DNA of 64,000 nucleotides from positions 768,001 to 832,000 of the forward strand of contig CAVQNG010000025.1 of the NCBI GenBank assembly GCA_963713825.1, written 5' to 3'. Below the pieces are notes generated by a model. That model was not told the DNA's origin, did no database searches, and saw only the letters and a program-made list of their open reading frames with translations. The number at the start of each line of letters is the position of its first letter. Within the stretch, counting starts at the first letter, position 1. A program made the translations under genes and the position numbers. This document shows, piece after piece, positions 938 through 24,213 of the stretch. Origin of the DNA: an uncultured Acidobacteriota bacterium. Its GTDB lineage: Bacteria > Acidobacteriota > Thermoanaerobaculia > Multivoradales > JAHEKO01.

Positions 938-1052
938 GGAGTGGATCATATGCGAGGATGCGGCGGGTTCATTCTCGAAGTCTGCCGCTCCGGATGTCGC
1001 GACTTCACAGTCTCAGCAATGAGGTGCGGACCAGCTCGTACCGCGGGATAGG

Positions 1053-2231: not shown

Positions 2232-2281
2232 TCTAGTAGACTGCGCGCCGCCGTTCTGCGAGTCCTGTCCGGGTCGAGACC

Positions 2282-3700: not shown

Positions 3701-3728
3701 GCCCGACGGCAGGGCCCGTGGCCCGAGA

Positions 3729-5174: not shown

Positions 5175-5185
5175 GGGTCGAGTCT

Positions 5186-6619: not shown

Positions 6620-6791
6620 GCTTGACTGGTGGGGACCGAGCCCACCCATGTTCGAGCAGGTCGATCTTCGGTCCGCTCCGAGACTATCGCAAACGTGGAA
6701 CCTACCGGTATTAAGATGCGGCAGGGTCGGCCTTACGGGCCGGATGTGGGTTTGACGCTCCAGGGTGAAGCTGGTAGGAAATGGACTACTC

Positions 6792-8606: not shown

Positions 8607-8712
8607 CCTTCCAAAGCCACTCTCGGGCAGTGTTCCGCTGCTTGGAGTCCTCACAACTTGTTGGACCCCTGGCGTCTATGTAGCACGGAGCACAGACATA
8701 TTCCTTCTCGTC

Positions 8713-8861
8713 TATACTTCAGCTGAAAGAAAAGAAAGTTCCTAAGGAGAGCACCTCGCGATGATCTCGAGGCTGAATCCTGTGCAGCATGCCCTGGTGG
8801 CAACCCAAGTGGGCTCTGCCGAGGGGAGTGCTGTGCAAAACCTGACAGAAAGGAGTAGGGA
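8713..8861 (+). promoter_or_regulatory. Putative promoter and conserved leader, copy 1 (upstream of fibre gene 1)
   Basis: TATACT at 8713, CCTCG-N9-CGAGG at 8754-8772, TGGCA-containing stem at 8798, AGAAAGGAG RBS; same layout upstream of all three paralogues. Confidence 0.55.
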
Positions 8862-10535
8862 ATGCGAGCGCGAGTAGTGGTAGGTCTTGTTGTCATCAGT
8901 CTGGTCGCGGCGGTAGGTGCCGCTGCTCCAGGGTCCGGTGCCAAGGCAGTCGCAACCGAAAGCGTGTCGGCGACGGGCCTTTCAATCACGCCGCAGGTTG
9001 CCTACGAGCAGGCGATGCTGCGAATCACAGGCCCCCAGGGCTACCACGGGAGGCAGAAGTTCGAAGCTGGAGCTGCCATTCAGGCGGACCTGACCTCCTT
9101 TGGCAGCAAGTCGTCCCACGGGAACCGTCAGCAACGTGGAGTTCGAGAGGAGCTCGCCGAGCGGACAGCGATGCCCAATGGACGGTACAAGTTCGAGGTG
9201 GCCTTCATGGCCGGCGGCAAGAAGGTCGGCGTCCATTCCGGAATGTTCTTCGTCGAGGGCGGTCTTACCGTCAGCCGGGATTCCAAGAGGTCGCAGCTGG
9301 CGCAGGTCCGTCAGGATCTGGGTCGGGAGCGACAACAGATGGCTGCCAAGGGATCGCGCCCCCAGATGTCGTCGGAAAAGCGTGGATCGGGGCTCAGGAG
9401 CGGCAAGACCGAGGCACCCATGTCCACGGAGGCACCGGTCACGGAGGGCTATCCCATCGCCGATTACATCGTTCTGTACCCCTACTCTGTTCCTACAACT
9501 TGGCTGGGCCTGGTGGCGTACGACTATCTCACCTATCAGTACGAGTCGATGTCGATCTCGAACTACGCTGGCGACCTCAGGATCGCCGACTACTACTACC
9601 CGTCCTACTTCAATCCTTACATTCGGGATCTCATGACCGTGACTAGCTACGGCAACGTCGGCATCGGCACGACCGCGCCCTATAACAGGCTGGAGGTGAC
9701 TGGCTACCCCTCGCAATTTGGGATCGGCTACGATGGATACTACAGTTCGGTGGGTGTCGGGTTTGCGGGTTTTTGGCTCTATGACGACGACTACGAACCC
9801 ATCGCCACGTTCAACCATAACGCGGATGCCTTTACCCTGGTCGTCGATGCTGAGGGCGTGGGCGTGGGCGACTTCCCCTACGTCTACCCTTATGGTTTCA
9901 CTGTCCCCGCTGTGGATCTCCATGTAAAGGACGAAGATCCCCAACTCCTGATCGAGTCCAGCTCAGGCACGACGGCGGGCCGTACCTTGGCCTACATGAA
10001 GAATCCCGGCGATGTCCGGATGTTCTGGGAGAACACCGACTCTGGAGACATCTGGCAGATGTCGATGCTCTCGACGGTGCTGCAGATGGCGACGCCGACC
10101 GGCAATGGAAAGTTTCGGGTCCGGAAGAGCGGCGGCTTGCAGGCCTTGAATGGGTCAACCGAGATAATGGCCCTCAACTCGACCGGGGACCTGACAGTGA
10201 AGTCGGTGACCGAGACCTCCAGCCGAGAGGCCAAGAATGGATTCGAATCCGTGGATGGGCTCTCGGTCCTGGAGAAGGTGGCAGCCTTGCCCATCTCAGA
10301 GTGGAGCTACAAGGTCGACAACCCCGGGGTGCGGCACCTCGGTCCGATGGCCGAGGATTTTCATGCCGCCTTCGGCCTGGGCAAGACCGGCAAGGGCATC
10401 ACCTCGGTCGACACCACGGGCGTGGCCCTGGCCGCCATTCAGGGCTTGAATCAGAAGCTGATGGAGAAGAACGCCCAGCTGGAGCAGCGCTTGCTCGAAC
10501 TCGAGGAGATGGTGCAAGCACTGGCCGAGCACTAG
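8862..10535 (+). CDS. Secreted fibre-like protein 1 with C-terminal Peptidase_S74 intramolecular chaperone
   Basis: Sec-type signal peptide, GNVGIGT shaft repeat, TSSREAK (Ser/Lys autocleavage-type site), WSYK...HLGPMAEDF...FGLG and a terminal coiled coil. Confidence 0.85.
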   Translation: MRARVVVGLVVISLVAAVGAAAPGSGAKAVATESVSATGLSITPQVAYEQAMLRITGPQGYHGRQKFEAGAAIQADLTSFGSKSSHGNRQQRGVREELAERTAMPNGRYKFEVAFMAGGKKVGVHSGMFFVEGGLTVSRDSKRSQLAQVRQDLGRERQQMAAKGSRPQMSSEKRGSGLRSGKTEAPMSTEAPVTEGYPIADYIVLYPYSVPTTWLGLVAYDYLTYQYESMSISNYAGDLRIADYYYPSYFNPYIRDLMTVTSYGNVGIGTTAPYNRLEVTGYPSQFGIGYDGYYSSVGVGFAGFWLYDDDYEPIATFNHNADAFTLVVDAEGVGVGDFPYVYPYGFTVPAVDLHVKDEDPQLLIESSSGTTAGRTLAYMKNPGDVRMFWENTDSGDIWQMSMLSTVLQMATPTGNGKFRVRKSGGLQALNGSTEIMALNSTGDLTVKSVTETSSREAKNGFESVDGLSVLEKVAALPISEWSYKVDNPGVRHLGPMAEDFHAAFGLGKTGKGITSVDTTGVALAAIQGLNQKLMEKNAQLEQRLLELEEMVQALAEH

Positions 10536-10839: not shown

Positions 10840-12402
10840 ATGAGGACAAAAGTAACTTGTGGATTGTTCATGCTTGTGTTGGCGACCCTGCCGGTCCTGG
10901 CGCAACCTGTGGCGACGGAAAGCGTGTCGGCAGCCGGCCTTTCGATCGCGACCGGAGTTGCCTACGAGGAGGCAACGCTGCGAGTGACAGGCCCAAATGG
11001 CTATAGCCTCAATCAGAGATTCGAGGGTGGTAGCCCAATCATGGTAGATCTGCTTGCCGAAGGTAGTTTCGGTAGGCCTGGAATGTCTGCGCTCAAGCGC
11101 AATGAGGTAGAGATTGGCCGAGGATTGACCGACGGTCTGTACAGGTTCGAAACGATCTTCTTGGCCGGCGGCAAGAAAGTCGACGTCCATTCGGGGACCT
11201 TCTTCGTCGAAAGTGGACTGGCGATCAGTCGAGATGCCAAACGGGCAGATCTGGGCGAGGTGCGTGACGATCTACTCCTCGACGCCGAACATCTGGCGGA
11301 CAGTCAGACAGTGGCAGACAACGTCGATGGTCTGTCTTACACGGAATCATACGCCGCACAAGATCACATCGATATTTTTGATGGCGCCAACGACGGGCTG
11401 ACGTTTCTGTCTCTCGATTCGGACACGAGCGGTGGAAGCCTGATCAACTACATGTTCACGTATAACGACAGCGGTGTTTTTAAGATCGGAACCAGTACCA
11501 ACAGCTCCCGGCCCGTTCCTGATGTGAACTTGGTCAACATCGATTCAACCGCAAAAGTCGGAATAGGTACCACGACGCCAGAAGCATTCTCCCGAATGCA
11601 CATCCGTGGCGCGACATCGGGTCTCATGGTGCTCGAAGAGGGCGATACTGGTCTTGAGACATGGGTAGGACCCTTCGATGACAAGTTCTTGATTGATGGT
11701 ATAGGTGGTGGGATCGAGGTTGGCATCTTGAATAGCAACGGGAATTTTGGGATTGGCACCTTCACTCCCGAAGCCAAGCTTCATATTGAGGACAACGAGC
11801 CTCAGATTCTGGTGAATTCGACCGGAGCGACCACAGGCCGCACCCTCGCCTACCTGAAGAACAACGGTGATGTGAGGTTCTTCTGGGAGAACACCAACTC
11901 CGGAGACATCTGGCAGATGTCGATGCTCTCTACGGTCCTACAGATGTCGTCACCCACCGGGGTGGGAAAATTCAGGGTGCGGAAGAGCGGCGGCCTGCAG
12001 GCGTTGAATGGCTCGACGGAGATCATGGCCCTCAACTCGACAGGTGACCTGACGGTCAAATCGGTGACCCAGACCTCGAGTCGCGAGCAGAAGCTGGGAT
12101 TCGAGTCGGTCGATGGGATCTCGGTCTTGGACAAGGTGGCCGGACTCCCGATCTCGGAGTGGAGCTACAAGGCCGACAATCCGTCGGTTCGCCACCTCGG
12201 TCCGATGTCGGAGGACTTCCACGCGGCATTCGGCCTCGGCAAGACCGACAAGGGTCTGACGTCAGTCGACACTGCCGGCGTGGCGCTGGCGGCCATCCAG
12301 GGCCTGAACCAGAAGCTGGAAGAGAAGGACGCCAGGATCGGCGAGCTGGAGCAGCGACTGCTCGAGCTCGAAGAGCTGGTGCAGGCGTTGGCCGAGCACT
12401 AG
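10840..12402 (+). CDS. Secreted fibre-like protein 2 with Peptidase_S74 chaperone
   Basis: Signal peptide (VLA-QP), N-domain homologous to paralogues 1 and 3, KVGIGTTTP and GNFGIGTFTP repeats, TSSREQK, HLGPMSEDF, coiled coil. Confidence 0.85.
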   Translation: MRTKVTCGLFMLVLATLPVLAQPVATESVSAAGLSIATGVAYEEATLRVTGPNGYSLNQRFEGGSPIMVDLLAEGSFGRPGMSALKRNEVEIGRGLTDGLYRFETIFLAGGKKVDVHSGTFFVESGLAISRDAKRADLGEVRDDLLLDAEHLADSQTVADNVDGLSYTESYAAQDHIDIFDGANDGLTFLSLDSDTSGGSLINYMFTYNDSGVFKIGTSTNSSRPVPDVNLVNIDSTAKVGIGTTTPEAFSRMHIRGATSGLMVLEEGDTGLETWVGPFDDKFLIDGIGGGIEVGILNSNGNFGIGTFTPEAKLHIEDNEPQILVNSTGATTGRTLAYLKNNGDVRFFWENTNSGDIWQMSMLSTVLQMSSPTGVGKFRVRKSGGLQALNGSTEIMALNSTGDLTVKSVTQTSSREQKLGFESVDGISVLDKVAGLPISEWSYKADNPSVRHLGPMSEDFHAAFGLGKTDKGLTSVDTAGVALAAIQGLNQKLEEKDARIGELEQRLLELEELVQALAEH

Positions 12403-12548: not shown

Positions 12549-12697
12549 TATACTGAATTTGTTCGAGTCAGCTGTGCATTCGGGGGGAATGCCTCGTGCC
12601 AAACTCGAGATCTCATCTCAGACGAGAGGCCCTTGGCAGGCCGATATGGCCGTGTCCATGGGACAAGTCTAGGAACCCCTACGAAAAGGAGGAGGCG
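12549..12697 (+). promoter_or_regulatory. Putative promoter and conserved leader, copy 3
   Basis: TATACT at 12549, CCTCG-N9-CGAGA at 12592-12610, TGGCA-GGCCG-ATA-TGGCC at 12634, AAAAGGAGGAGG RBS. Confidence 0.55.
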
Positions 12698-14431
12698 ATG
12701 ACGGCGAGAGCGATAGTCGGATTGGCGTTGATGAGCCTGGTGGCGGTGGCATCCGTGGCCGCACCGGGGCCGCAGGCTCGAGTGGTAGCCATCGAGAACT
12801 TGTCGGCAACGGGCCTTACGATCACTCCACAGATCGCTTACGAGCGGGCGACCCTGCGCATTCAGGGCCCGCATGGCTACGTGGGTCGGCAGAGGTTCGA
12901 GGTGGGGGAGCCCATCCAGATCGACCTGGCCTCCTTTGGCAGGAGATCGGCCGGACTCCGGCACCAGAGACCAGGCCTGCAGGACGAACCGGCGAATCGG
13001 GTTGCGATGCCCGACGGCCGCTACAAGCTCGAGGTCGTCTTTGTGGCTCGCGACAAGAAGGCGGGTGTCCACAACGGGATGTTCTTTGTAGAACAGGGCC
13101 TGGCAGTCAGTCGGGACGTCAAACGGGCTCAGCTGGCTACCCTGCGAGGCGACCTGGCCAAGACTCGTCAACAGATCGCAGCAGGCAATCGGGGTGGAGC
13201 ACCGATGTCCGTCGAGCGCCCCGGCCGTCGACTCTCCGGCGAGGGGACCGGTGGGCCGATATCGTTCGAGGCTCCAATACCCGAGGGCGCCGGCTTTGCC
13301 GACTACCTATCGGTATACCCGGTCTTGCGCCCCAACTACACCTGGTCGGCCCTGGGCAATCAACCAGGGCCTTACTCTTCGGCGGCTTGGTCGATGATCC
13401 ACTCCTACGGCTACCTGGGCTTTTATTACGGTGGGTATCCCTATCCCCTGGACCACATTGCCGGCTATCCGTACCCACAGGTCAGCTTCACTCCCGCCTA
13501 TGGCTACTACGGAACCAGGGTCGGAATCGGCACGACCACGCCGGTGGAGACGCTGGACATCAATGGTGCCTACGCATACTGGGGACAGTTCGGTATCACC
13601 GGATATGGCGGCTACCGAAGCTACGTGGGTGTCGGGGGCCTCGGTCTGTGGCTGTACGACGACGACTATGAGCCGATCGTCAACTTCAATCACGGGGCGG
13701 ATCCGGGGACCTTGGTGGTGGATGCCGAGGGTGTGGGCGTCGGCGACTTCTCCTACGGCGTTCCCTTGCAGGATCTTCACGTCAAGGCGGACGAACCGCA
13801 GCTGCTCGTGGAGTCCACCGCCGGGACGACTACTGGCCGCACTCTGGCCTATATGAAAAATCCTGGCGATGTTCGGATGTTCTGGGAGAACTCGGATTCC
13901 GGGGACGTCTGGCAAATGTCGCTTTTGGCGACGGTACTCCAGATGTCGACCCCGTCTGGAGATGGCAAGTTTCGCGTTCGCAAGAATGGGGGCTTGCAGG
14001 CGTTGAACGGCTCGACCACCATCCTGGACCTCAACGCTACGGGCGATCTGACGGTCAAGTCGGTGACGGAGACTTCCAGCCGCGACGCCAAGCGGGGGTT
14101 CGAGACCGTGAATGGGCTGTCGGTTCTCGAGAAAGTGGCCGCCCTGCCCATTAGCGAGTGGAGTTATCGTGCCGACAGCCCTTCCGTGCGCCATCTCGGT
14201 CCCATGGCCGAGGACTTTCATGCCGCGTTCGGTTTGGGCAAAACGAACAAGGGACTGACGTCAGTGGACACTTCAGGTGTGGCCCTGGCGGCGATTCAAG
14301 GCCTGAACGAGAAGCTGGTTGAAAAGGACGCCCGGATCGCCGAGCTCGAATCCCGGCTGCAGGGGGTCGAGGAGATGGAACTCCGACTGCTAGAGCTCGA
14401 GCAGATCGTCGAGACTCTGGTGGAGCATTGA
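12698..14431 (+). CDS. Secreted fibre-like protein 3 with Peptidase_S74 chaperone
   Basis: ATG 12698 follows an AGGAGG RBS; signal peptide MTARAIVGLALMSLVAVASVAA; RVGIGTTTP; TSSRDAK; HLGPMAEDF; coiled coil. Confidence 0.85.
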   Translation: MTARAIVGLALMSLVAVASVAAPGPQARVVAIENLSATGLTITPQIAYERATLRIQGPHGYVGRQRFEVGEPIQIDLASFGRRSAGLRHQRPGLQDEPANRVAMPDGRYKLEVVFVARDKKAGVHNGMFFVEQGLAVSRDVKRAQLATLRGDLAKTRQQIAAGNRGGAPMSVERPGRRLSGEGTGGPISFEAPIPEGAGFADYLSVYPVLRPNYTWSALGNQPGPYSSAAWSMIHSYGYLGFYYGGYPYPLDHIAGYPYPQVSFTPAYGYYGTRVGIGTTTPVETLDINGAYAYWGQFGITGYGGYRSYVGVGGLGLWLYDDDYEPIVNFNHGADPGTLVVDAEGVGVGDFSYGVPLQDLHVKADEPQLLVESTAGTTTGRTLAYMKNPGDVRMFWENSDSGDVWQMSLLATVLQMSTPSGDGKFRVRKNGGLQALNGSTTILDLNATGDLTVKSVTETSSRDAKRGFETVNGLSVLEKVAALPISEWSYRADSPSVRHLGPMAEDFHAAFGLGKTNKGLTSVDTSGVALAAIQGLNEKLVEKDARIAELESRLQGVEEMELRLLELEQIVETLVEH

Positions 14432-14610
14432 CGGTACCGGGGTGCAGGGACCGTGACGACATCCCTGGAGATGGCTGATCATGCCTACAATGTGGCCGTG
14501 GATGACAGCACAACTGGACTCGGCGTGGCGGAGTTTGGCGTAAAATGACACTGTCTACGTATAGATAGTCAGTGGAACCGAGACAAATGCAGTTTCTGTT
14601 ATAAGATAGC

Positions 14611-14639
14611 TTGACAAACCCGGAAAGGCTTTGTAGGTT
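14611..14639 (+). promoter_or_regulatory. Sigma70-type promoter
   Basis: TTGACA (14611-14616), 17-bp spacer, TAGGTT (14634-14639), preceded by an AT-rich stretch. Confidence 0.65.
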
Positions 14640-14691
14640 GAGTTGAGCAGAGGTACATCCGGAAAAGGTGACGTCGAAACGGAGGATTGCC

Positions 14692-15348
14692 ATGACCAAG
14701 ATCAAGTACACAGTTTTGCTTGCAGCCCTAGTTGTTCTTTTGCCCGCAATGGCCAGCGCCAATGCCCTTGATGTCAACGCCAACGCGGCGCTGACGGGCT
14801 CGGTCGGGACCGCCTGTGGTGGCAGTCCTTGTGGCCTCGAGGTCCAGATTACGGACCAGGACCAGGCCTACGTCGCTTCGACCCATCCGGATGCGGAATC
14901 TCACGTCGTTATTACCTTCCGAGTCGACCCCAACGACATCGTGTTGCCCGACTATGGGCCGGACGACAAGCCTGGACGGATTCGTGTCCTCAAGGCCTTC
15001 AACGATGCGGCATCCTCTCGCCAGCATATGTTCGTCACCGTAAAGAGGGGTGCATCGGCCTACAGGTTGGCGGTGCTGCAGCGGAACAACAACGGGGACT
15101 TCGCGTTCATCGGAGAGTTCTTCCTGGGAAACAAGGACAGCGAGATCAAGATCGATTGGACAGCGGGGAACCCTGGTACTGTCGTGGTCTACCGAGATGG
15201 CACTGAGTTTGCCAGGAGAGAGACCCTCAACTTCGCGAACCACAACATCGACGAGGTCCGCCTGGGTGCTCCTGGTGGCGATCCTGATGCCATCACTGCT
15301 GGAGTCTCGGGAAGCGTCTACCTGGACGAGTACGTTTCGACCCGTTAA
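14692..15348 (+). CDS. Secreted single-domain beta-rich protein of unknown function
   Basis: GGAGG RBS, signal peptide ending ASA-NA, alternating hydrophobic beta-strand pattern, C-terminal IDEVRLGA...YLDEYVSTR; has its own promoter and terminator. Confidence 0.8.
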   Translation: MTKIKYTVLLAALVVLLPAMASANALDVNANAALTGSVGTACGGSPCGLEVQITDQDQAYVASTHPDAESHVVITFRVDPNDIVLPDYGPDDKPGRIRVLKAFNDAASSRQHMFVTVKRGASAYRLAVLQRNNNGDFAFIGEFFLGNKDSEIKIDWTAGNPGTVVVYRDGTEFARRETLNFANHNIDEVRLGAPGGDPDAITAGVSGSVYLDEYVSTR

Positions 15349-15374
15349 GCCTGTCTACCTGTCCGATTATGTCG

Positions 15375-15410
15375 AAGGCCCTCTGTGGTTACACAGGGGG
15401 TCTTTTCTTT
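15375..15410 (+). terminator. Intrinsic terminator
   Basis: AAGGCCCTCTGTG-GTTA-CACAGGGGGTCTT stem followed by TTCTTT. Confidence 0.8.
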
Positions 15411-15511
15411 GCCCGGCGATCGTTGCCGAGTGCTTGCCGAAGCCAAAAAGCTCTGGCACAATCGACGCGTTCTGAGGCTACCCTCCCCTGCCTCGGTGCA
15501 GGGACAAGATC

Positions 15512-16813
15512 GTGAAAAAAGCTACGAGTGCTCTTCTCCTGACCGTGCTCACGCTGGCTCTGCTGGAAGTCGGTTCGTGGGTCTACCTGTCCGTTTTCGA
15601 GGATCTGACCTACGCTGATCTCGCGGCAGAGAAGAACAGACAAGTCAATATCGTCATGGCGGGGAAGAACCCCGGCGACGTGAGGTTCTGGAACAACCAG
15701 AAATTTCAGCTGCATCCCTATTTCGGATATACGCTCGAGCCCTGGAGCGCTGACGGCGTCAACAACGCTGGACTGATCTCCGAGAAGACCTACCCTTACG
15801 TGTCGGACGGAAGCTCCCTTGCAGTGGGTGTCTTCGGTGGTTCGGTGGCAGGGAACATCTTCTTCCATATCGACAAGGTGCGTCGGCAGCAGCTGGAGAA
15901 GCTCCTGCTTCCCCTTGTCGCCGAGAAGGGATATACGAGCGTTGAATTCCTGAACTTCACGCTGGGAGGCTACAAGCAGCCCATCGATCTGTTCAACTTC
16001 ATCTACTACCTCGAAACGATCGACGTCGCCATATTCATCGGCGGGTTCAACGAGGTCCATCAATTCAGCACCAACGTGGAGGACCATGAGTTTCCAGCCG
16101 ACTTCCCGAAGTGGAAGTACTGGAGAACGCTAGGGGAGGGAACCTTCAGCCCAGCCGAGCTCAGGCTCATCGGCCGACTGGCGAGAAATCGCGATTGGCA
16201 GAACGCTGTGACCGGCTTTGCGTCGGCACCCGTGTTGAATCGCAGCATGTTCGTGCACATGCTCTGGAGAGCGGCAACGGCTGTCCTGATGAAATCGGTG
16301 AATGAGAGCAGGGCGGAGTTGGATGAAGAGGAGGGCAACGAGCGTGTCTATCCTCAGGTCGCCGACAGCGGTGACTTGGAAGATATCGCTGGTGTCTTTC
16401 TCGACAAACTCGGCAGTTATATCAGAAGCGCTGACGCGGTCGGGCGGGCTGGTCAGGTGCTGACTTTGTTCGTCATTCAGCCCAATCAGTACGTTCCGAG
16501 CTCGAAGCCGCTCAGCGACGTCGAGAAACGTGACTTCTTGACCAGCGAGAACCTGCCCCAGGTCATCTCTGAATGGTACCCGCGAATCCGCGAACTGTAT
16601 GGCGAGCTCGGTGCAGAGGGCATCTTTACCGTCGATTTGACTGAGGTGTTCTCCGATACGCAAGAGACCACCTACGCGGACGAGTGCTGCCATCTCAATG
16701 CTCTGGGTCGCAGAATCGTAACCGACAAGATTTTCGAGTCCATGATTTCCAGGGAAGGGTTTCTGGACACTCTGCCGAGGACGGATCAGCGGCAAAGGAA
16801 CGAGCTGCGATGA
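15512..16813 (+). CDS. Membrane-anchored SGNH/GDSL-like protein, possible glycan O-acyl modifier
   Basis: N-terminal TM helix, VGVFGGSVA (block I-like), GGFNE and YADECCHLNALG (D-x-x-x-H, block V-like). Confidence 0.6.
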   Translation: MKKATSALLLTVLTLALLEVGSWVYLSVFEDLTYADLAAEKNRQVNIVMAGKNPGDVRFWNNQKFQLHPYFGYTLEPWSADGVNNAGLISEKTYPYVSDGSSLAVGVFGGSVAGNIFFHIDKVRRQQLEKLLLPLVAEKGYTSVEFLNFTLGGYKQPIDLFNFIYYLETIDVAIFIGGFNEVHQFSTNVEDHEFPADFPKWKYWRTLGEGTFSPAELRLIGRLARNRDWQNAVTGFASAPVLNRSMFVHMLWRAATAVLMKSVNESRAELDEEEGNERVYPQVADSGDLEDIAGVFLDKLGSYIRSADAVGRAGQVLTLFVIQPNQYVPSSKPLSDVEKRDFLTSENLPQVISEWYPRIRELYGELGAEGIFTVDLTEVFSDTQETTYADECCHLNALGRRIVTDKIFESMISREGFLDTLPRTDQRQRNELR

Positions 16814-18216
16814 GGACATCCCGTTGGCGGGTAGCGTTGCTTCTTCCGATGGCAGGTCTGGCGCTCGGATGCTCGGGAAGTCCAGAAGGGGTCGTGGTCG
16901 AGAGTTCCTGCGATGGATGCAACGTCCTCCTGATCTCCATCGACACCCTGCGAGCGGATCATCTGGGCACCTATGGGTACGGCAGGGAGACCTCACCCGC
17001 CATCGATGCGCTGGCGTCCGAGTCGGTGGTCTTCGAGAGGGCCTACAGCACCTCCTACCACACCGCCGATTCCCACATGTCCATCTTCACCTCGCTCTAC
17101 CCGTCGGTGCATGGAGTGCGAAACAGCAAGGGTAAGACAGGGCAGGTGCTCTCGGCTTCTGTCCCGACGCTGCCCGAGATTTTCCAGGCCAATGGGTACG
17201 CCACTGCGGGGTTCCACGGCGGCGGCAATGTCTCTGGCTTCTACGGATTTGCCAGGGGCTTCGAGAAGTACAAGCGAACAGATGAGGTCGGTGACGCCAT
17301 TGCCTGGATCCAGGAGACGGGTCCCAGACCTTTCTTCGCGTTCGTCCACACCTATCACGTTCACGATCCCTACACTCCGCTGCCACCGTATGACTCCTGG
17401 TTTGCTGAAGACTATGACGGCCCCATCTCCGCCGATCGAGAGTCGCTGCTGGCGCAAACGGACGACGAGAGCTTCAACGAGCTGCGGGATGTCTTCTGGA
17501 ATCAGATCGATCCGTCGAGCCAAGCAGACATCGAGCACCTGAAAGCCCTCTACGACGGCCAGATTCGAGACATCGACGGCCGCATCGGGGCGTTGATCGA
17601 GGCCGCGTTGGCGGCCGATGAGAGAACGGTCGTCGTGTTGCTCTCGGACCACGGTGAGGAGTTTCAGGAGCACGGCAAGTTTCTTCACGACCAGCTCTAT
17701 GAGGAGTTGCTGTGGGTACCGCTCATTCTCCGTTTGCCTTCCGGTGAACGGAGTCGGGTCGAGGAGCGGGTCAGCCTCATCGACATCGCCCCGACATTGT
17801 TGGACCTGCTGGGCCTCGAAGCTCCGGCCCAATTCCAGGGCGCCAGCCTCCTCCCAGTCCTGGCGGGTAAGGAGGACCGACCCCTGATCTACGGCGAGAA
17901 GGTTGTGCGAGCTCCGGGGATCGACGATGAAGCAGAAGACGGTGAACCGGGGATTCGGGCGGCCCTGATCTCCGACGACTGGAAGGTCATCACTGCCAGG
18001 TCCCAGGAGTTGTACTATCTACCCGACGATCGGCTGGAGCAGAGCAACCTGGCTGCGAAGAGTCCGAAGATGAGAGGCCTTCTCAAGCTGCTGGCGGATG
18101 TAAACCGACGCAACGCCGCGCTCCGCAAAGAGCTTGGTACCGGTCGAGGAGAACGACAAGGGCTGGACGAGGAGACCCTCGAAGAGCTCGAGGCTTTGGG
18201 CTATCTGGGGAACTAG
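16810..18216 (+). CDS. Sulfatase-like hydrolase/transferase, probable lipoprotein
   Basis: ATGA overlap with the upstream stop; ALGC lipobox; SIDTLRAD, YHTADSH, SDHGEEFQEHG, LEALGYL. Confidence 0.85.
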   Translation: MRTSRWRVALLLPMAGLALGCSGSPEGVVVESSCDGCNVLLISIDTLRADHLGTYGYGRETSPAIDALASESVVFERAYSTSYHTADSHMSIFTSLYPSVHGVRNSKGKTGQVLSASVPTLPEIFQANGYATAGFHGGGNVSGFYGFARGFEKYKRTDEVGDAIAWIQETGPRPFFAFVHTYHVHDPYTPLPPYDSWFAEDYDGPISADRESLLAQTDDESFNELRDVFWNQIDPSSQADIEHLKALYDGQIRDIDGRIGALIEAALAADERTVVVLLSDHGEEFQEHGKFLHDQLYEELLWVPLILRLPSGERSRVEERVSLIDIAPTLLDLLGLEAPAQFQGASLLPVLAGKEDRPLIYGEKVVRAPGIDDEAEDGEPGIRAALISDDWKVITARSQELYYLPDDRLEQSNLAAKSPKMRGLLKLLADVNRRNAALRKELGTGRGERQGLDEETLEELEALGYLGN

Positions 18217-18228
18217 CCACGAGCCGGC

Positions 18229-19341
18229 CTAGGGGGATTTCGCCGCCAGTTGCCTGAATAGCGCCGCGTACTGTTCGGTGACAGCTTGCCAGCTGTAGCG
18301 AGCTGACGCCAGGGCCGCGGCGCGACGGGCGGGGTCCTCCCTGAGATCCGGGTCGCCAGTCAGAGCCTGCAACTGTGCGGTGAGAGTCGATGGCCGCCGG
18401 GCATCGAAATAGAGGCCGGTTTCGGCAGCCACCTCCCGATTCTCGGGCGTGTCGTTGACCACGACGCAGTTGCCATAACCCATCGCCTCGACAAGGGCCG
18501 GATGGGTGCCTCCGACCTCGGTGGCATGGATGTAGGCCAGCGAGTGGGAAAGCAACTCCTGATAGCCCTGTCCATAGATTGGTCCCGGGAACAGGACTCT
18601 GGGGTCAGCGCCCTCCGTAAAGCCTCGAACGAACCGATCTGCGTAGGGGGCCCCTCCCACCATCACGAGGGGCAGGTCGCCATCCACAGCCCGGTAGGCC
18701 TCTGCCACGCGGTGGGGATTGTTCTCGGGCTCGAACCGGCTGACGTACAGGAAGAACCGCCGTGACTCGAGGCCAAGTCGCTGCATCGTCTCGCCCGGCT
18801 GCAGGGGCTGCGGATCCACTCCGTATTTCAGCACCGTCGAGTCGGCCTTGCGGTTCTCGAGGTAGTACTCGCGAATCACTTCCGCATCGGTGATCAGGGT
18901 GGTGGGGACCAGGACCGCCAGTCGCTCGGATAGCGAGTACGCCAGCCGTCCCAGAGGGCCCCACTTGGCTCGTTGTCGCTCGATTCCATCGACATGCAGA
19001 GCCACCGGAGTGCCGCCAACTCTCAGCAGGGGAACGAAGATGGCGTTGACCGAGTTGACGACCAGCGCGGCGTCGAAATCTTGGCGTGCAGCATGTAGGC
19101 AGGCGAGCAGTGTGTGGATCGGAGTATCCAGGTACTTGGTTCGCACGGTCGGTAGGACGGTGAGCTTCACTCCTCGGTAGCAGCCCATGTCGCGAGGTGT
19201 GTAGTGACTGCGGCAGTAGACCGTTACATCGAGGCCCGAACGAGCGAGCCGAGTAGAGAGCTCCTCCATGAGGGTCTCGTAACCACCATAGCGGGCCGGA
19301 ATCCCGCGGCTGCCGATCAGGGCTACCTTCAAGGGGCTCAA
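18229..19341 (-). CDS. Glycosyltransferase family 4 (DUF1972-type N-terminus)
   Basis: IGSRGIPARYGGYET, VSRFEPENN and EVGGTHPALVEAM; TTG start overlapping the upstream TGA is inferred. Confidence 0.88.
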   Translation of the reverse strand: MSPLKVALIGSRGIPARYGGYETLMEELSTRLARSGLDVTVYCRSHYTPRDMGCYRGVKLTVLPTVRTKYLDTPIHTLLACLHAARQDFDAALVVNSVNAIFVPLLRVGGTPVALHVDGIERQRAKWGPLGRLAYSLSERLAVLVPTTLITDAEVIREYYLENRKADSTVLKYGVDPQPLQPGETMQRLGLESRRFFLYVSRFEPENNPHRVAEAYRAVDGDLPLVMVGGAPYADRFVRGFTEGADPRVLFPGPIYGQGYQELLSHSLAYIHATEVGGTHPALVEAMGYGNCVVVNDTPENREVAAETGLYFDARRPSTLTAQLQALTGDPDLREDPARRAAALASARYSWQAVTEQYAALFRQLAAKSP

Positions 19342-20336
19342 AGAGGAAGTCCCTTTCGAAAGAACCATCGATTGATGGCCGCATCGCTGACCGTGCACCG
19401 ACTACGGATCACATGTCGACGGCGGCGGATCTCTCGCCGATGTTTCCAGAGCCATCCATAGGCAGCAAGAGAGCTCCTCTCCATGAGCAGCACATAGGCG
19501 AAGGCGGCCAGGTCGCGAAATAGGGCCGGGACACCCGTCAGCAGAAGATTCATGCCGTTCTGGTGATAGCACCGCAAGAGGTAGCGGTTTTTCAACGAGT
19601 GCATGTTGACCTGCTGGGACATCTTCCGGCGCCGACTCGGCAGGTTGTGCCGGCGATGCTCGCAGAGGGCGCCGGGCTCATAGAGAACCTCCCAACCCCG
19701 TTCCTGGAGCCGGAAGCAGAGCTCGGCATCCTCGCGGAAGGAGTGGAACTCGGAGAGAAAGATCTCGCCGTCGACGGCCGCATCGTCCAACGCCTGGCGA
19801 CGAAAGAGCGAAGCCGCACCCGTGGCGCCGAACACCCTGTCGGCGAGCGTCCATCGCCCCTCGACCGGTTCGCCCGAGCCGCGATCGAAATGGCGCCAGG
19901 TGGGTGACAGGACCATGCCGCAGGCGTCCAGAAGCTCTGCTTCGGATGAGTGTCGGGGCCGGGTCAGCCTGCCGGCGAGAGCACCTACCCGAACGTCGGG
20001 ATGCTTCACTGCTCGTTCGAGGAGGCGCGAGACGTAGTGTGGATCCGGTCGGGCGTCGGGGTTCAGGGTCAGCACCCACGGTGCCTCGGTCTGAGCCAGC
20101 GCTTCGTTCATGCCGCCAGCAAAGCCAAGGTTCGCTGACAGGGAGCGGTGCACCAGCGGAATTTCAGGCGGGTGCTCCCGATCGACAACACCGACGCTGT
20201 CGTCGGTACTGGCGCAGTCCACGACCACCAGCTCGAGTGGTCTGTGGCGCAAGGCGCTCACCGACTCGAGGCAGCCTCGCAGGTCGCCCTCGGAGTTGAA
20301 CGTGATGATGCAAACGGCGACTTTCCCCGCTTCCAC
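19338..20336 (-). CDS. Glycosyltransferase family 2
   Basis: VVDCASTDDS, NLGFAGGMN, LTLNPDA, REDAELCFR. Confidence 0.9.
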   Translation of the reverse strand: MEAGKVAVCIITFNSEGDLRGCLESVSALRHRPLELVVVDCASTDDSVGVVDREHPPEIPLVHRSLSANLGFAGGMNEALAQTEAPWVLTLNPDARPDPHYVSRLLERAVKHPDVRVGALAGRLTRPRHSSEAELLDACGMVLSPTWRHFDRGSGEPVEGRWTLADRVFGATGAASLFRRQALDDAAVDGEIFLSEFHSFREDAELCFRLQERGWEVLYEPGALCEHRRHNLPSRRRKMSQQVNMHSLKNRYLLRCYHQNGMNLLLTGVPALFRDLAAFAYVLLMERSSLAAYGWLWKHRREIRRRRHVIRSRCTVSDAAINRWFFRKGLPL

Positions 20337-20339
20337 GAC

Positions 20340-21311
20340 TCAGCCTCCTGATGCTTCCGAGTGGGGTTCATCATGGGGGCTCCGACTGCGGGAGCGAGGT
20401 AGCTTCCAACCGGTCAGCGCTCCGAGGAGCAGCTCGGACAGGCCGCTGAGCGCTTCACGGCGTGAGGCAGCGCGACTCGGCTTTCGAAGAACCAGCAACG
20501 GCATCCTGACCGTGGCTGCGGCTGCAGTCAGCGATCGGGCGACGATAGCCGACGCCTTCGAGTGGTGCTTGCCCAAGTATCGCCCCAGGTTCCGGTAGTA
20601 GGTCCAGAGGAATGGGCCGTATCCCAACTTCGGCACCGTGGCTCCGAGCCGGTGCTCGAAGCTCGCAGCGGGCCAATAGACCAGGGTCCGACCAGCCATC
20701 AGCAGACGCCGCGCCAGATCGACGTCCTCGAACCAGGCCGGAAAGAACTCCGCGTCGAAGCCACCGATCTCTTCCAGAGCGCTGCGTCGCAGGGCGAGGG
20801 CGGCCGCGGCCGGTTGTTCCACGACTGTTCCTGCAGACGGCTCGTCCGCCGGTCCCTGACCGGCTGGAATCATCAGCGACTGGAGAAGGAGGGTAGAGGA
20901 GTGTGGGATGGGACGAAGCTGCCATCGATGCTGGGTGCTGCCGTCTGTCGACACGAGCCTGGGAGCCAGGCCCGCAGCCTCGGGATGATGCTCCAGACCT
21001 TCGATCAATCTCTCCAAGGCTGCCGGCGCTGGCCTGACATCGGCGTTGAGGATCAGAATTATCGGCGCCTCTGTCACTTCGAGGGCGGCGTTGACAGCGC
21101 CTCCGAAACCGAGATTCCTTTCCGGCTCGAGGAGCCGGGCGCCGACGAGCCCTCCTCCCAGAGATCTGGAGTTGTCAACGACGATCAGCTCGAATCGGCT
21201 GTCTACGGGCCAGGCCTCCGCAAGCTTCAGAAGCTCTTCGTCGCAGTGCCAATTGACCGCGATTCCTGTCAGGACCGGGCCTGTGGTGCGACCTGGAGTA
21301 GTAGTTGACAC
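20340..21311 (-). CDS. Glycosyltransferase family 2
   Basis: VVDNS, NLGFGGAVN, LILNAD, GGFDAEFFPAWFEDVDL. Start moved to GTG 21311, just after the upstream stop; exact start uncertain. Confidence 0.85.
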   Translation of the reverse strand: MSTTTPGRTTGPVLTGIAVNWHCDEELLKLAEAWPVDSRFELIVVDNSRSLGGGLVGARLLEPERNLGFGGAVNAALEVTEAPIILILNADVRPAPAALERLIEGLEHHPEAAGLAPRLVSTDGSTQHRWQLRPIPHSSTLLLQSLMIPAGQGPADEPSAGTVVEQPAAAALALRRSALEEIGGFDAEFFPAWFEDVDLARRLLMAGRTLVYWPAASFEHRLGATVPKLGYGPFLWTYYRNLGRYLGKHHSKASAIVARSLTAAAATVRMPLLVLRKPSRAASRREALSGLSELLLGALTGWKLPRSRSRSPHDEPHSEASGG

Positions 21312-21321
21312 TCCGCTAACT

Positions 21322-22254
21322 CTACTCGGGTTTGTGTCGGTGATCGACGCCGATTTGTGGCTCACCCGTGTTGGCGAAGAGGCTGAGGTTGGTCGCGGCT
21401 CGCACCCAGCCATCCAGGATACCGACAGATTTTCGAACGTCGAGATCGACAGCTGCCCGTCCAAGGTCGAGCATGTCTCGGCCGAGGAGCTTCGGGAGGT
21501 GACTCCAGAACGTTCGGCCCTGGGTTCGAGCCAAGACCAGGTACCGATTGCCATAGATCAGGCTGTAGCGGTGCATGGGCTGCTTCTTGGTGGTTGTCCC
21601 ACTGGCGTGAAAGGCTCGCGCTGCCGGTACCGAGAGGGCCGTGTAGCCGGCAGCTCGGAGTCGGCAGGCGAGGTCCACATCCTCGTAGTAGGACTCGAGT
21701 CGGACGTCGAAGAACTCCGAATCCGCCAGGGCCACTGCGTCCAGTGCCGCGCGCTTGTAGAGTGCTGCCGTAGCTGACACGCCAAAGGTCTCCTCTGCCG
21801 GCAGGCTGACCGTCGGAGCAGCGTCCCCGTGACCCTTTTGGATAGCCTGCCAGCTGCGGTTCCATTCGAGGCCCCGCCCATCCACTCGGTCCGGTTGCAG
21901 CATCTGCAGGTTCAGTCCTTGAGCAGCGGCGGCCCGCGGCGCTGCGCCCAACGCCGCGATCAGGGTGGAGGCCCAATCGGGCTCGATCGTGGCGTCGTCA
22001 TTGAGCAGCGCGACGTATTCCGAGGTGCTCACGGCGATGCCCAGGTTGCAGGCCTCGGAAAAGCCAACTCCACGGTGGGTAGCCACGAGCTTCAGTCCCG
22101 GTACCGATTCGAACCGCGGCTCCATGGTTGGAGGGTGAACCAGAAGAACTTCGACTCGCACACCTTCCGAGGCAGCTGCCGACTCGAGGCAGTCCTTCAG
22201 ATAGTGGCTGGCCCCCAGGGAGGGGACCACGAAGGTCACGTCAGGATTCGGCAA
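21322..22254 (-). CDS. Glycosyltransferase family 2
   Basis: GFSEACNLG, ALLNDDA, SYYEDVDLACR. Confidence 0.88.
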   Translation of the reverse strand: MPNPDVTFVVPSLGASHYLKDCLESAAASEGVRVEVLLVHPPTMEPRFESVPGLKLVATHRGVGFSEACNLGIAVSTSEYVALLNDDATIEPDWASTLIAALGAAPRAAAAQGLNLQMLQPDRVDGRGLEWNRSWQAIQKGHGDAAPTVSLPAEETFGVSATAALYKRAALDAVALADSEFFDVRLESYYEDVDLACRLRAAGYTALSVPAARAFHASGTTTKKQPMHRYSLIYGNRYLVLARTQGRTFWSHLPKLLGRDMLDLGRAAVDLDVRKSVGILDGWVRAATNLSLFANTGEPQIGVDHRHKPE

Positions 22255-23056
22255 AACCTTCCGAGTACCGTTGCAGGACTTCGTCTGTCGGTCCTGCGGC
22301 CTTCAATTGTCCGCGCTCGATCCAGATGGCTCGAGTGCAGTGATCGGCAATGGCCTCCATTTGATGGGATACCAGGAGGATCGCCGTGCCTTGCGACCGG
22401 AATTCATGGATCCTCGCCAGGCACTTTTCCTGAAACCCCGCGTCGCCAACGGCCAGCAGCTCGTCGATCAACAGGATGTCGGGCCGGAACATGGTCGCCA
22501 CGGCAAATCCGAGGCGGGCCAGCATGCCGCTGGAGTAGTTGCGAATCGGCAAATCGATGAACTCTTCGAGCTCGGAGAAGGCGATGACCTCGGCGAGATG
22601 AGCCTGCACGACCCGACTGGAGTAGCCGAAGAGAGCTGCATTGAGGAAGACGTTCTCCCGGCCGGTCAAGTCGTAGTGGAATCCGGCGCCCAGTTCCAAG
22701 AGGGGAGCGACCTGTCCTCGCACCACAACCCGGCCGCCCGTTGGTGTCAGAACCCTGGAGATCACTTTCAGAAGTGTGCTCTTGCCGGCTCCATTGCGCC
22801 CCACGACGCCGACAAACTCTCCAGGCCGGATGTCCAGGTCCAACGATCGCAAGGCCCAGAGCTCACGATGCTCGAGTTTGCCGGTGATGCGCTTCAGCAC
22901 ATACTCCTTGAAGCTGACGATTCTCTCGGTCGGCATCGAGAAGCGGACTTCGATGCTGGTCAGAGCGATCGCGGACTCGACGGTCTGGGGACTCTCCCGG
23001 GAGGGGGCCGGTGCCGTGTCAGCTACGGTAGTCAAAAACGCTCCTCTGGGTGGCAA
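22241..23056 (-). CDS. wzt: Polysaccharide ABC exporter ATP-binding subunit, lacking a C-terminal carbohydrate-binding domain
   Basis: GRNGAGKSTLL, LELGAGFH.DLTGREN, YSSGM.ARLGFA, DELLAVGDA.FQ.KC; start uncertain. Confidence 0.9.
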   Translation of the reverse strand: MPPRGAFLTTVADTAPAPSRESPQTVESAIALTSIEVRFSMPTERIVSFKEYVLKRITGKLEHRELWALRSLDLDIRPGEFVGVVGRNGAGKSTLLKVISRVLTPTGGRVVVRGQVAPLLELGAGFHYDLTGRENVFLNAALFGYSSRVVQAHLAEVIAFSELEEFIDLPIRNYSSGMLARLGFAVATMFRPDILLIDELLAVGDAGFQEKCLARIHEFRSQGTAILLVSHQMEAIADHCTRAIWIERGQLKAAGPTDEVLQRYSEGFAES

Positions 23057-23900
23057 ACACCCACCATCCTACGGCCAGGGAGGCCAGGCTGAAGCCAATG
23101 GCAGCCAGCCAGTTCTCGACCGGTGCCACACGGCCCAGAATGACCGGGTCTCGGACCAGGACCACGAGGTGATAAAGGGGATTGAGGAGGAAGTACTTCT
23201 GAAACTGAGGCGGCACGATCTCCAGTGGATAAATGATGGGAGTGGCGTAGAGCCACCCAGTGAGCAGCACCTGGTAGGTCAGCTTCACGTCGTGAAAAAA
23301 GGCTCCCAGGGTAGCGACCAGGAGACCTACCCCCAACGCGAACAGGGCGGTGATCAGCATGCCGAGTGGGATGGTCACGAGAGCCCAGGACAGAGGATGA
23401 TGCAGGAAAAGCATGATCCCGAAGAGTGGAATCAGGGCGATCGCCCAGCTCACGAGATAGGTGATCACCGTGGCAACTGCGAAAGCGCTGCGGGGCACAT
23501 AGATGCGGCTCGCCAGGCCCAGGCTGGCAACGGTCTCTTCCACGATCTGTAGAGTCGAACGATTGAAGAAATCGAACAACAGCAAGCCCGACAAGATGTA
23601 GAGAGGATAGGGGTAGTCGCCGGCCTCGAAACGAAACACCTGGGAGAAGACGATCGTCAGGATCGTCATCAACATCAACGGTTCGAGCAGGGTCCAAAGG
23701 ACTCCGAGAATGGACCGCTTGTACCGGAGCTTGATGTTGCGTCGACTCCACTGCAGGACCAGATCCCAGAACCGGACCAGCTCCTGGGCTTCTTCGATCG
23801 CTGGATGAGGTCTCTTGGCGGAGTCGTAGACTTGCCGTCGTAGCGCAGGCGAAGTCGGGGCTGAGGTGGAAGAGAGAGTCATCGACCGACTTCCAGTCAC
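23019..23900 (-). CDS. wzm: Polysaccharide ABC exporter permease
   Basis: RYKRSILG.LW.LL.PL, YATPIIYP, LNPL; multiple TM segments; adjacent to wzt. Confidence 0.9.
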   Translation of the reverse strand: MTGSRSMTLSSTSAPTSPALRRQVYDSAKRPHPAIEEAQELVRFWDLVLQWSRRNIKLRYKRSILGVLWTLLEPLMLMTILTIVFSQVFRFEAGDYPYPLYILSGLLLFDFFNRSTLQIVEETVASLGLASRIYVPRSAFAVATVITYLVSWAIALIPLFGIMLFLHHPLSWALVTIPLGMLITALFALGVGLLVATLGAFFHDVKLTYQVLLTGWLYATPIIYPLEIVPPQFQKYFLLNPLYHLVVLVRDPVILGRVAPVENWLAAIGFSLASLAVGWWVFATQRSVFDYRS

Positions 23901-23976
23901 GGAGCTCGGGTACTCAGGGTCAACCCCACCTAGCCGAGCGGCTCAGGACGATCCGGAGCTCTGATCCCACAGTCGC

Positions 23977-24213
23977 CTATGGGACTTCGGGCTCGTCATT
24001 CTCGTCGTCGGGAGCGACGACCGATTCCGTCCACTCCCGCTCGTCGCCAGCCTCGAAACCGTCTTCGTGGATGGCGGGCTCTCCTTCGGACGTGACGCTG
24101 GCTTCCGGATTCGGAGCCTGGTCAGTTTCACCTTCTGGCGAGGAGCCGCTGCAGGCGACGAGGGAGGAAACCAGCAGGATGGCAGCGAAGATCGTTGAGA
24201 AACGCCGTTTCAT
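23977..24213 (-). CDS. Small lipoprotein with acidic linker and IHEDGFEAGD motif
   Basis: MKRRF, hydrophobic stretch, LVAC lipobox; lies in otherwise empty intergenic space. Confidence 0.7.
   Translation of the reverse strand: MKRRFSTIFAAILLVSSLVACSGSSPEGETDQAPNPEASVTSEGEPAIHEDGFEAGDEREWTESVVAPDDENDEPEVP

Follow-up and report, generated by a model that had tools for sequence, protein, structure and literature searches.

Several described systems join exported proteins through a small partner module. In the cellulosomes of Clostridia, which have SLH-anchored scaffoldins, cohesin pairs with dockerin, a calcium-binding module of ~70 amino acids, and both partners are complete folds. In donor-strand complementation, as in chaperone-usher and type V pili, immunoglobulin-like pilins lack a C-terminal strand, which is supplied by chaperones or by neighbouring pilins of the same family. 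SpyTag/SpyCatcher and split-GFP (green fluorescent protein) are engineered pairs, and SpyCatcher forms an isopeptide bond. Here we describe a 64,000-nucleotide stretch of the genome of an uncultured Acidobacteriota bacterium (contig CAVQNG010000025.1, positions 768,001 to 832,000; hereafter the window), in which the gene at 14692–15348 encodes a secreted protein that looks like the body of a lectin-like domain without its opening segment, and about 70 other proteins of the same genome end in a tail that resembles this segment. We refer to the secreted protein as the acceptor, to the tails as tags and to the proteins that carry them as cargo. We give a probability of roughly 50% to the reading that the acceptor is a domain body completed in trans by the ~70 cargo tails.

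The acceptor is read from the window as follows:

14692..15348, + strand: acceptor gene, an open reading frame of 218 amino acids, with a signal peptide followed by a jelly-roll domain lacking its N-terminal segment
14692-14760, + strand: acceptor signal peptide, residues 1-23, MTKIKYTVLLAALVVLLPAMASA, read from the sequence as cleaved before NALDV
14761-15345, + strand: mature part of the acceptor, residues 24-218 (~195 amino acids)

The protein is exported by a Sec-type signal peptide and has no anchor of its own. Its cleavage context, A-x-A before the cut and N-[AS]-L-x-V after it, is kept in close and distant relatives in an alignment of 60 relatives, in which only G192 and D212 are invariant. 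The host genome (5.42 Mb, 61% GC, 96% complete, labelled G000; here and below G, f and g labels stand for the genomes, families and genera of our samples) has the domain only once in a search to E ≤ 10, in the strand-less form. No family of Pfam-A or NCBIfam 20.0 matches the acceptor, and a sequence-profile search against the chains of the Protein Data Bank (PDB) gave a best E value of 0.06 and no sequence-level relative. The nearest named relatives of the locus are metagenome-assembled genomes (MAGs) of Thermoanaerobaculia/Acidobacteriota, and a related-locus search matched four loci, all in such MAGs. As leads only, the nearest Protein Atlas clusters are sets of 'hypothetical protein' commonest in Acidobacteriota and Pseudomonadota, and in a cluster further away 48% of the members have PF21340.

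To describe the tag, the strict pattern [DN]GFE.G.{2,6}W was searched in the six-frame translation of the genome, where it matched 59 times: 50 matches lay exactly 16 residues before a stop codon, eight lay 18–28 residues before it and one was internal. A looser pattern matched 62 times in the exact 16-residue register and 73 times no more than 30 residues ahead of a stop, versus nine elsewhere in 8.4 million residues, and the reversed DNA pattern used as a control gave no match in this genome and 0–1 in others. In total 69–73 reading frames are tagged. The suggestion of an earlier note on this DNA that secreted proteins share a C-terminal DGFE tag is therefore borne out, far above chance (59 strict matches, 50 of them in register, control 0). 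Across 40 aligned tails the common part is limited to the last 19 residues, [IVL]F.DGFESGDTSAWS.TV[PQE]-COOH, and nothing upstream is shared.

Tail, as a peptide sequence: IFADGFESGDTSAWSSTVP

The cargo is diverse. Among 51 tagged carriers scanned we found M43, M36, M23, M12B and trypsin-like peptidases and GDSL lipases, together with beta-helix, FG-GAP and CarboxypepD_reg repeats, an MtrC-like multihaem cytochrome, LamG and C-type lectin domains; a Pfam family was assigned at E ≤ 1e-4 in 30 of the 51 and none in the other 21. Most tagged proteins have a signal-peptide-like N-terminus as judged by eye. No NCBIfam model, including the sorting-signal models, matches any of the 40 tails, and the literature searched holds no description of a DGFESG tail or of a C-terminal tag on secreted Thermoanaerobaculia proteins; neither tag nor acceptor is described in Pfam-A, NCBIfam 20.0 or that literature. 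The one internal copy of the motif (FSDGFESGDLSAWSSC...) lies 286 residues before the end of a 1600-residue RHS-repeat protein (G000:C35:14180-18979, L050), with no domain body after it.

The relation between tag and acceptor emerges from relatives in which both parts lie on one chain. An exhaustive search returned 227 cluster representatives at E ≤ 1e-3. When the profile of the strand-less family was run on 176 proteins and at least 120 profile positions were required, 211 domain instances were counted in 173 proteins, and the DGFE motif lay directly upstream of the domain in 107 of them. A further 89 instances had the strand-less form, with a signal peptide, the domain and no motif, and 87 of these proteins are 260 residues or shorter; the remainder were cut at a partial N-terminus (8) or unclear (7). 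In multidomain proteins every copy of the domain is preceded by its own motif. The earlier note had claimed that the motif is the first part of the domain in other proteins and that the 14692 protein begins after the motif's position, and had suggested looking in homologues for an IFADGFESG segment immediately upstream; the complete relatives have it, and their alignment places the start of the acceptor just as claimed.

The part present in complete relatives and missing from the acceptor reads IFADGFESG..SAWS..V. The consensus of 88 complete N-termini (IFADGFESGnLSAWSSavTDGGDLS) and that of 69 tails of this genome (iFaDGFESGDTSAWSsTVP) agree at 15 of 19 positions. The tails end two or three residues short of the G-D-L-S-V at which mature strand-less proteins (N-[AS]-L-x-V) begin. 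A natural fusion, P0055, has a signal peptide, a tail-like stretch LIFADGFDSGNTSAWSAAVP that ends AAVP, a 10-residue linker and then a body with the Cys-x4-Cys loop of the window protein. On a FastTree tree of 195 segments, inferred with the N-terminal columns left out (the 8 N-terminally cut rows, the 7 unclear ones and 1 not spanning profile positions 60–195 were omitted), the complete or strand-less state changes nine times; 200 shuffles of the labels gave 64.5 changes on average and never fewer than 53. This makes the strand-less form a stable lineage and not a set of random truncations.

Predicted structures show the same gap. The AlphaFold2 (AF2) model of the window protein (mean predicted local distance difference test score, pLDDT, 91.8; predicted template modelling score 0.85) gave 359 Foldseek matches at E ≤ 0.001, and from this model the protein is a predicted two-sheet jelly roll of the concanavalin A-like lectin/glucanase superfamily. 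Aligned with VIA-align to glucuronan lyase 2zzj, it gave Z 16.6 and a root-mean-square deviation (rmsd) of 2.6 over 175 aligned residues, covering model residues 22–218 and chain residues 20–228; P0159, a complete relative with one domain (model pLDDT 82.8), gave Z 20.1 and rmsd 2.3 over 192 residues, covering model residues 33–237 and chain residues 1–229. On five further solved chains the alignments start as follows:

Chain 3zyp: window protein from chain residue 24, P0159 from 1
Chain 8q2a_C: window protein from chain residue 38, P0159 from 3
Chain 6kcw: window protein from chain residue 52, P0159 from 21
Chain 5gmt: window protein from chain residue 32, P0159 from 1
Chain 3d6e_B: window protein from chain residue 22, P0159 from 3

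A deficit of ~20–35 residues at the chain start is thus seen against all six solved jelly rolls. Because the window protein aligns only from chain residue 20–52 and P0159 from 1–21, the former lacks a structural element of the solved folds that the motif-bearing relative provides.

The distribution of tag and acceptor was then compared across genomes. Of 401 genomes sampled from the phylum, 11 have the domain; five genomes have 38–91 motif matches, all five with the strand-less signal-peptide form, and the other 396 have 0–7. Among 401 genomes sampled from the class, 95 have the domain and 110 have at least one motif match. The earlier note had proposed counting tags against presence of the gene, and this count, compiled by hand from the domain and motif tables and given here without a P value, placed the domain in 70 of 80 tag-rich genomes (at least 10 matches) versus 25 of 321 tag-poor ones (fewer than 10), the latter mostly with internal complete copies; 296 genomes have neither. 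In 68 of the 70 tag-rich genomes the domain match starts at profile position 11 or earlier, that is in the signal-peptide part. Both elements are also absent together: genus g6 of family f4 comprises 33 genomes with neither, and four sister genera have both; joint absence recurs in f1 g3, f102 g244 and several f11 genera. Within genus g236 (f5) both elements are missing from the 100% complete genomes G459 and G719 and present in eight congeners. A comparison of M36 peptidases, full-length, tagged and orthologous in tag-rich G579 versus a distant 607-residue M36 protein with a Cys-rich end in tag-free G314, was an unclean pair and was not used as evidence.

These analyses directly support an incomplete fold, a tag that equals the missing segment in sequence and register, one acceptor against ~70 tags, and the co-occurrence of the two, as well as the SLH and FN3 fusions and the polysaccharide context treated below. 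They suggest, as the most economical explanation, a split domain with one exported body shared by the tails of ~70 proteins. The idea of the earlier note that a domain without its DGFE segment accepts tags in trans has accordingly stood up in part, through indirect tests (the upstream segment in relatives, the gap in the fold, co-occurrence and P0055). In the mechanism that we propose, the body of a concanavalin A-type jelly roll, of the lectin or polysaccharide-lyase kind, would be exported without its opening ~20 residues, and outside the cytoplasm a cargo tail would insert into the incomplete body and complete the fold. The C-terminus of the tail would meet the N-terminus that signal peptidase makes on the body, at a loop that is continuous in the intact domain. 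Each tagged enzyme or adhesin would in this way gain, non-covalently, one shared lectin-like module that holds it at the cell envelope. In this genome the module would probably do so by attaching to the polysaccharide that the cluster around its gene produces, and in other lineages via SLH cell-wall anchors fused to the strand-less module. We infer the physical binding of tail and body, the compartment in which it takes place and glycan binding by the completed domain.

Several observations weigh against this mechanism. AF2 folds the body confidently without the segment, and the need for a partner does not follow from the model. In the P0159 model, built from an alignment with the segment in eight rows only, the DGFE stretch has a pLDDT of 55–72 and forms a 2-residue bridge instead of a long strand; the clear strand is the subsequent S-x-x-V-x part (residues 50–55), paired with the one with which the window protein begins. 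Tail length varies by lineage: most tails of G005 end at the Trp, and those of G276 are 12–18 residues long. The S-x-T-V-P end is therefore lineage-specific, and a comparison of tail length with the acceptor N-terminus gave no interpretable pattern of covariation, the G005 acceptor having an N-terminus of usual length. In G005 (L079–L087) most tails read DGFESGDTTAW-stop, five residues shorter than in the genome of the window. The host organism is most likely diderm, so that cargo and acceptor would need to cross an outer membrane.

The genome counts are also to be read with caution: genomes of shared ancestry are not independent, and the 2x2 numbers therefore overstate the evidence. In ten of the 80 tag-rich genomes the domain was not matched. 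A renewed search of five of these, in which all candidates were scored, gave nothing in the four f11 genomes (91–94% complete, 440–800 contigs) and only a weak domain match (E 0.02) in G739, which is 97% complete and has 123 motif matches. Assembly gaps are plausible since seven of the ten exceptions belong to genera whose other members carry the gene, an account that does not extend to G739, G552 and G664. Conversely, strand-less proteins occur in G401 and G668 despite 0–1 tag matches, the looser pattern included, and SLH-fused forms of g236 occur in genomes with only 1–14 matches, so that the body may function alone.

Strand-less proteins in nearly tag-free genomes, at least one nearly complete tag-rich genome without acceptor (G739) and a body that folds well by itself would all suit another explanation, in which the tail is an address label read by other machinery for export or sorting, the 14692 protein works independently in the envelope, where it binds or modifies polysaccharide, and the likeness of the two reflects evolutionary origin only. 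The cargo set, with its peptidases, lipases, adhesin-like repeats and cytochrome, is also like that of known secretion and sorting tags. This explanation leaves three things unaccounted for: that the one copy of the domain is missing exactly the piece found on ~70 tails, that the tail end and the body start meet at one loop, and that within families the tags come and go together with the strand-less form. The tail, moreover, has none of the features of known signals, be it a transmembrane helix, a basic cluster or a domain of 70–100 residues. We regard the address label as a tentative alternative of lesser probability.

Fusions of the strand-less module bear on where the split domain might act. 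The module is free (~215–235 residues) in G165, G005, G176 and G119, and it is joined to two or three SLH repeats in G276, G503, G627, G695, G715, G723, G755, G488 and G668, that is in nine genomes of three families (f5, f6 and f11; PF00395 at E 1e-11 to 1e-19), with the signal peptide kept. In G691 and G711 it is fused instead to FN3 repeats. Acceptor genes lie among sulfatase-family, sulfotransferase, glycosyltransferase, Wzy/Wzx or ABC-2 genes in five genomes of four families. The neighbours are sulfatase-family and sulfotransferase genes in G165, and GT4, sulfotransferases, Wzy_C and a Wzx-sulfotransferase fusion in G176. In G276 they comprise a sulfatase-family gene and, immediately upstream of the acceptor gene, one for a tagged S8 subtilase. 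G119 has sulfatase-family genes, a methyltransferase and a pair of ECF-sigma-like and zf-HC2 anti-sigma-like genes. These neighbours in several genomes argue for an envelope role linked to polysaccharide, possibly sulfated. In the window the acceptor gene and the lipoprotein gene described below flank such a cluster:

15512..23900: cell-envelope polysaccharide cluster between both genes, by Pfam a 433-residue protein without assignment, a sulfatase-family protein, GT4/DUF1972, three GT2 proteins, an ABC ATPase and an ABC-2 permease

The same observations touch on the possibility that the tail does bind the 14692 protein and that the latter acts as a periplasmic chaperone or export adaptor, not as a surface or matrix anchor; it would then hold tagged proteins or pass them on, much like pilus chaperones with their strand complementation. 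A Sec-type signal peptide without an anchor and one acceptor gene for ~70 cargo genes would fit such a role, and in diderm bacteria SLH domains can lie on the periplasmic side and attach to polymers of the wall. SLH and FN3 fusions and the polysaccharide context suit a retained structural module, not a chaperone that is recycled, and no usher-like or secretin gene was found by Pfam beside the acceptor in six loci. We consider a chaperone role unlikely. For the split domain taken as a whole, we give about even odds to a natural tag/catcher system, with a domain split at a loop, that has spread through several Thermoanaerobaculia-like families of Acidobacteriota, reaches ~150 tags in a genome and exists in free, SLH-anchored and FN3-extended forms.

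At the far end of the polysaccharide cluster lies a small lipoprotein that the earlier note had cast as the membrane tether of the system:

23977..24213, - strand: open reading frame of 78 amino acids, acidic lipoprotein, MKRRFSTIFAAILLVSSLVAC, with lipobox LVAC, Cys21 and an acidic spacer
24031-24072, - strand: tag-like motif of the lipoprotein, IHEDGFEAGDEREW, residues 48-61

The anchor, the acidic spacer and the motif are real; contrary to what had been stated, the protein does not end at the motif, which is followed by 17 more acidic residues (TESVVAPDDENDEPEVP). Because of this acidic tail the motif starts 28 residues from the stop codon and not 16 as in the tags, and it has His at the position of their conserved Phe. 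An orthologue was found only in G119, of the same genus, with 57% identity, the motif VVFEEGFEAGDDQDW, the lipobox LAAC and a place beside the same ABC-2 permease; the lipoprotein gene lies ~9 kb from the acceptor gene in both G000 and G119. In G005, G165, G276 and G176 only motif-level matches were obtained. In G119, the sister species, the acceptor gene comes after an ECF-sigma-like gene and, directly upstream, the gene of a zf-HC2 anti-sigma-like membrane protein (L057:8594-10601), whose outer end is tag-like (LHADGFDSGGLGSW) and finishes in ...LHADGFDSGGLGSWSHIEKSGQDPTG.

In the scheme of the earlier note, the lipoprotein would tether the acceptor through its DGFE-like motif and cargo would be displayed, possibly in an S-layer-like lattice. 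For such a scheme speak the retention of G-F-E-A-G-D-x3-W in the G119 orthologue at 57% overall identity and the end of the G119 zf-HC2 protein, so that two membrane-anchored proteins near the locus have tag-like motifs. One missing segment makes one site, however, and an acceptor holding the lipoprotein would have no room for a cargo tail, so that tether and cargo could not be bound together. With the off-register motif, His for Phe and conservation restricted to one genus (no orthologue in four other tag-rich genomes), the tether is improbable, and no sign of self-assembly was seen that would fit a scaffold of the S-layer kind. The lipoprotein may be one more client; possibly it is a client or a regulator-like partner and not a tether. 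The anti-sigma-like protein of G119 might couple free acceptor to gene regulation, and its counterpart in G000 is only a weak match (E 5e-4).

The acceptor gene has expression signals of its own:

14611..14639, + strand: candidate promoter, weak, with -35 TTGACA at 14611-14616, a 17-nucleotide spacer and a -10-like TAGGTT at 14634-14639
14681..14685, + strand: Shine-Dalgarno sequence GGAGG, 6 nucleotides 5' of the ATG, read from the sequence
15375..15414, + strand: intrinsic terminator, a 13-bp hairpin at 15375-15404 followed by a U-rich tail, UCUUUUCUUU

These agree with a stand-alone secreted gene with a strong ribosome-binding site, as had been described (open reading frame, signal peptide and GGAGG 6 nucleotides from the start codon), and with its own terminator, whose 13-bp hairpin has an energy of -24.6 kcal/mol (z -2.98), equalled by one of 200 shuffles. 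The promoter had been called near-consensus, which holds for the perfect -35 box and not for the -10 box (3 of 6 positions), and a consensus promoter scan of 14300–15600 called no promoter-like site; the same scan missed the terminator that the fold-versus-shuffle test supports. In the close acceptor subfamily a loop is inserted, G-T-A-C-G-G-S-P-C-G, whose two Cys (P0001 residues 42 and 47, window ~14815–14832) are invariant and probably form a disulfide. Most distant strand-less relatives have no counterpart of this loop, yet it is present in the fused protein P0055.

Directly upstream of the acceptor gene lie the following:

8862-10535, 10840-12402 and 12596-14431, + strand: three tandem secreted paralogues of 557, 520 and 611 amino acids with a C-terminal Peptidase_S74 domain

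Peptidase_S74 is the self-cleaving intramolecular-chaperone module of phage tail spikes and fibres, and this phage-type module sits here inside a bacterial polysaccharide cluster. At positions 1–8606 of the window the envelope cluster continues upstream with a GT4 gene and four more genes of the sulfatase family, one of which is a fusion with TPR repeats; this makes five sulfatase-family genes in 18 kb. The sulfatase-family (PF00884) neighbours of the acceptor gene in several genomes share a C-terminal L-[RE]-A-[LI]-G-Y-[LTV]-x (window 16684-18216; L053:3741-7625(-) and 7894-9405(-); L056:14867-16480(-)), with the ends EELEALGYLGN, LRALGYTE, LRAIGYVE and LRALGYLP, and this may be a second tail motif of the same clusters.

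If the split domain is real, it would represent a mode of bacterial protein sorting or display not described before, in which cargoes dock non-covalently by completing a fold and a single adaptor gene serves dozens of them. It would assign a function to a tail that is very frequent among the exported proteins of sediment Acidobacteriota, and provide a handle on how these organisms retain exoenzymes and on the biology of their polysaccharide matrix. For protein engineering it would offer a natural small pair, a 19-residue peptide and a protein of ~195 residues.

As a short C-terminal signature on dozens of exported proteins of certain lineages, the tag is comparable to LPXTG/sortase, PEP-CTERM/exosortase, GlyGly-CTERM, MYXO-CTERM and type IX secretion system (T9SS) signals. 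Unlike the sortase and exosortase signals, all 40 tails end five polar residues after the Trp, with no hydrophobic stretch or basic cluster, and unlike the T9SS domain (70–100 residues; Por_Secre_tail, PF18962) the conserved tail has ~19 residues; PF18962 appeared once among the 51 carriers, below cut-off (26.4 versus 27 bits) and internally, at residues 278–319 of a 1306-residue protein. In fold the acceptor is like polysaccharide lyases and lectins, such as PL20 glucuronan lyase 2zzj, Cip1 3zyp, alginate lyases of PL7, PL14 and PL36, and TtX122 8q2a; unlike these, it shows no sequence-level relation to them, its N-terminal segment is absent, and no conserved catalytic residues are apparent in the 60-member alignment, in which G192 and D212 alone are invariant. 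With SpyTag/SpyCatcher and split-GFP it shares a short tag that would complete a truncated beta-rich domain, both derived from one intact domain, and it would differ from both in being natural; unlike SpyCatcher, it gives no hint of a covalent bond.

The two closest parallels are those with which we began. As in cohesin-dockerin pairs, a short C-terminal module sits on many unrelated secreted enzymes and a separate receptor that would bind it non-covalently is fused to SLH in some lineages, a feature seen in nine relatives and not in the window protein. Unlike dockerin, the ~19-residue tail would be part of the receptor's own fold, the receptor of the window is a single module without anchor, and Pfam found no cohesin or dockerin in the acceptor or the 51 tagged proteins. 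As in donor-strand complementation, an exported domain without one strand would have it supplied by another polypeptide; unlike in the pilus systems, the domain is a jelly roll without its N-terminal segment, the donors would be ~70 unrelated proteins, and no chaperone or usher genes are seen nearby. The system thus stands with cohesin-dockerin in its logic and with donor-strand complementation in its proposed mechanism, and it is a member of neither family.

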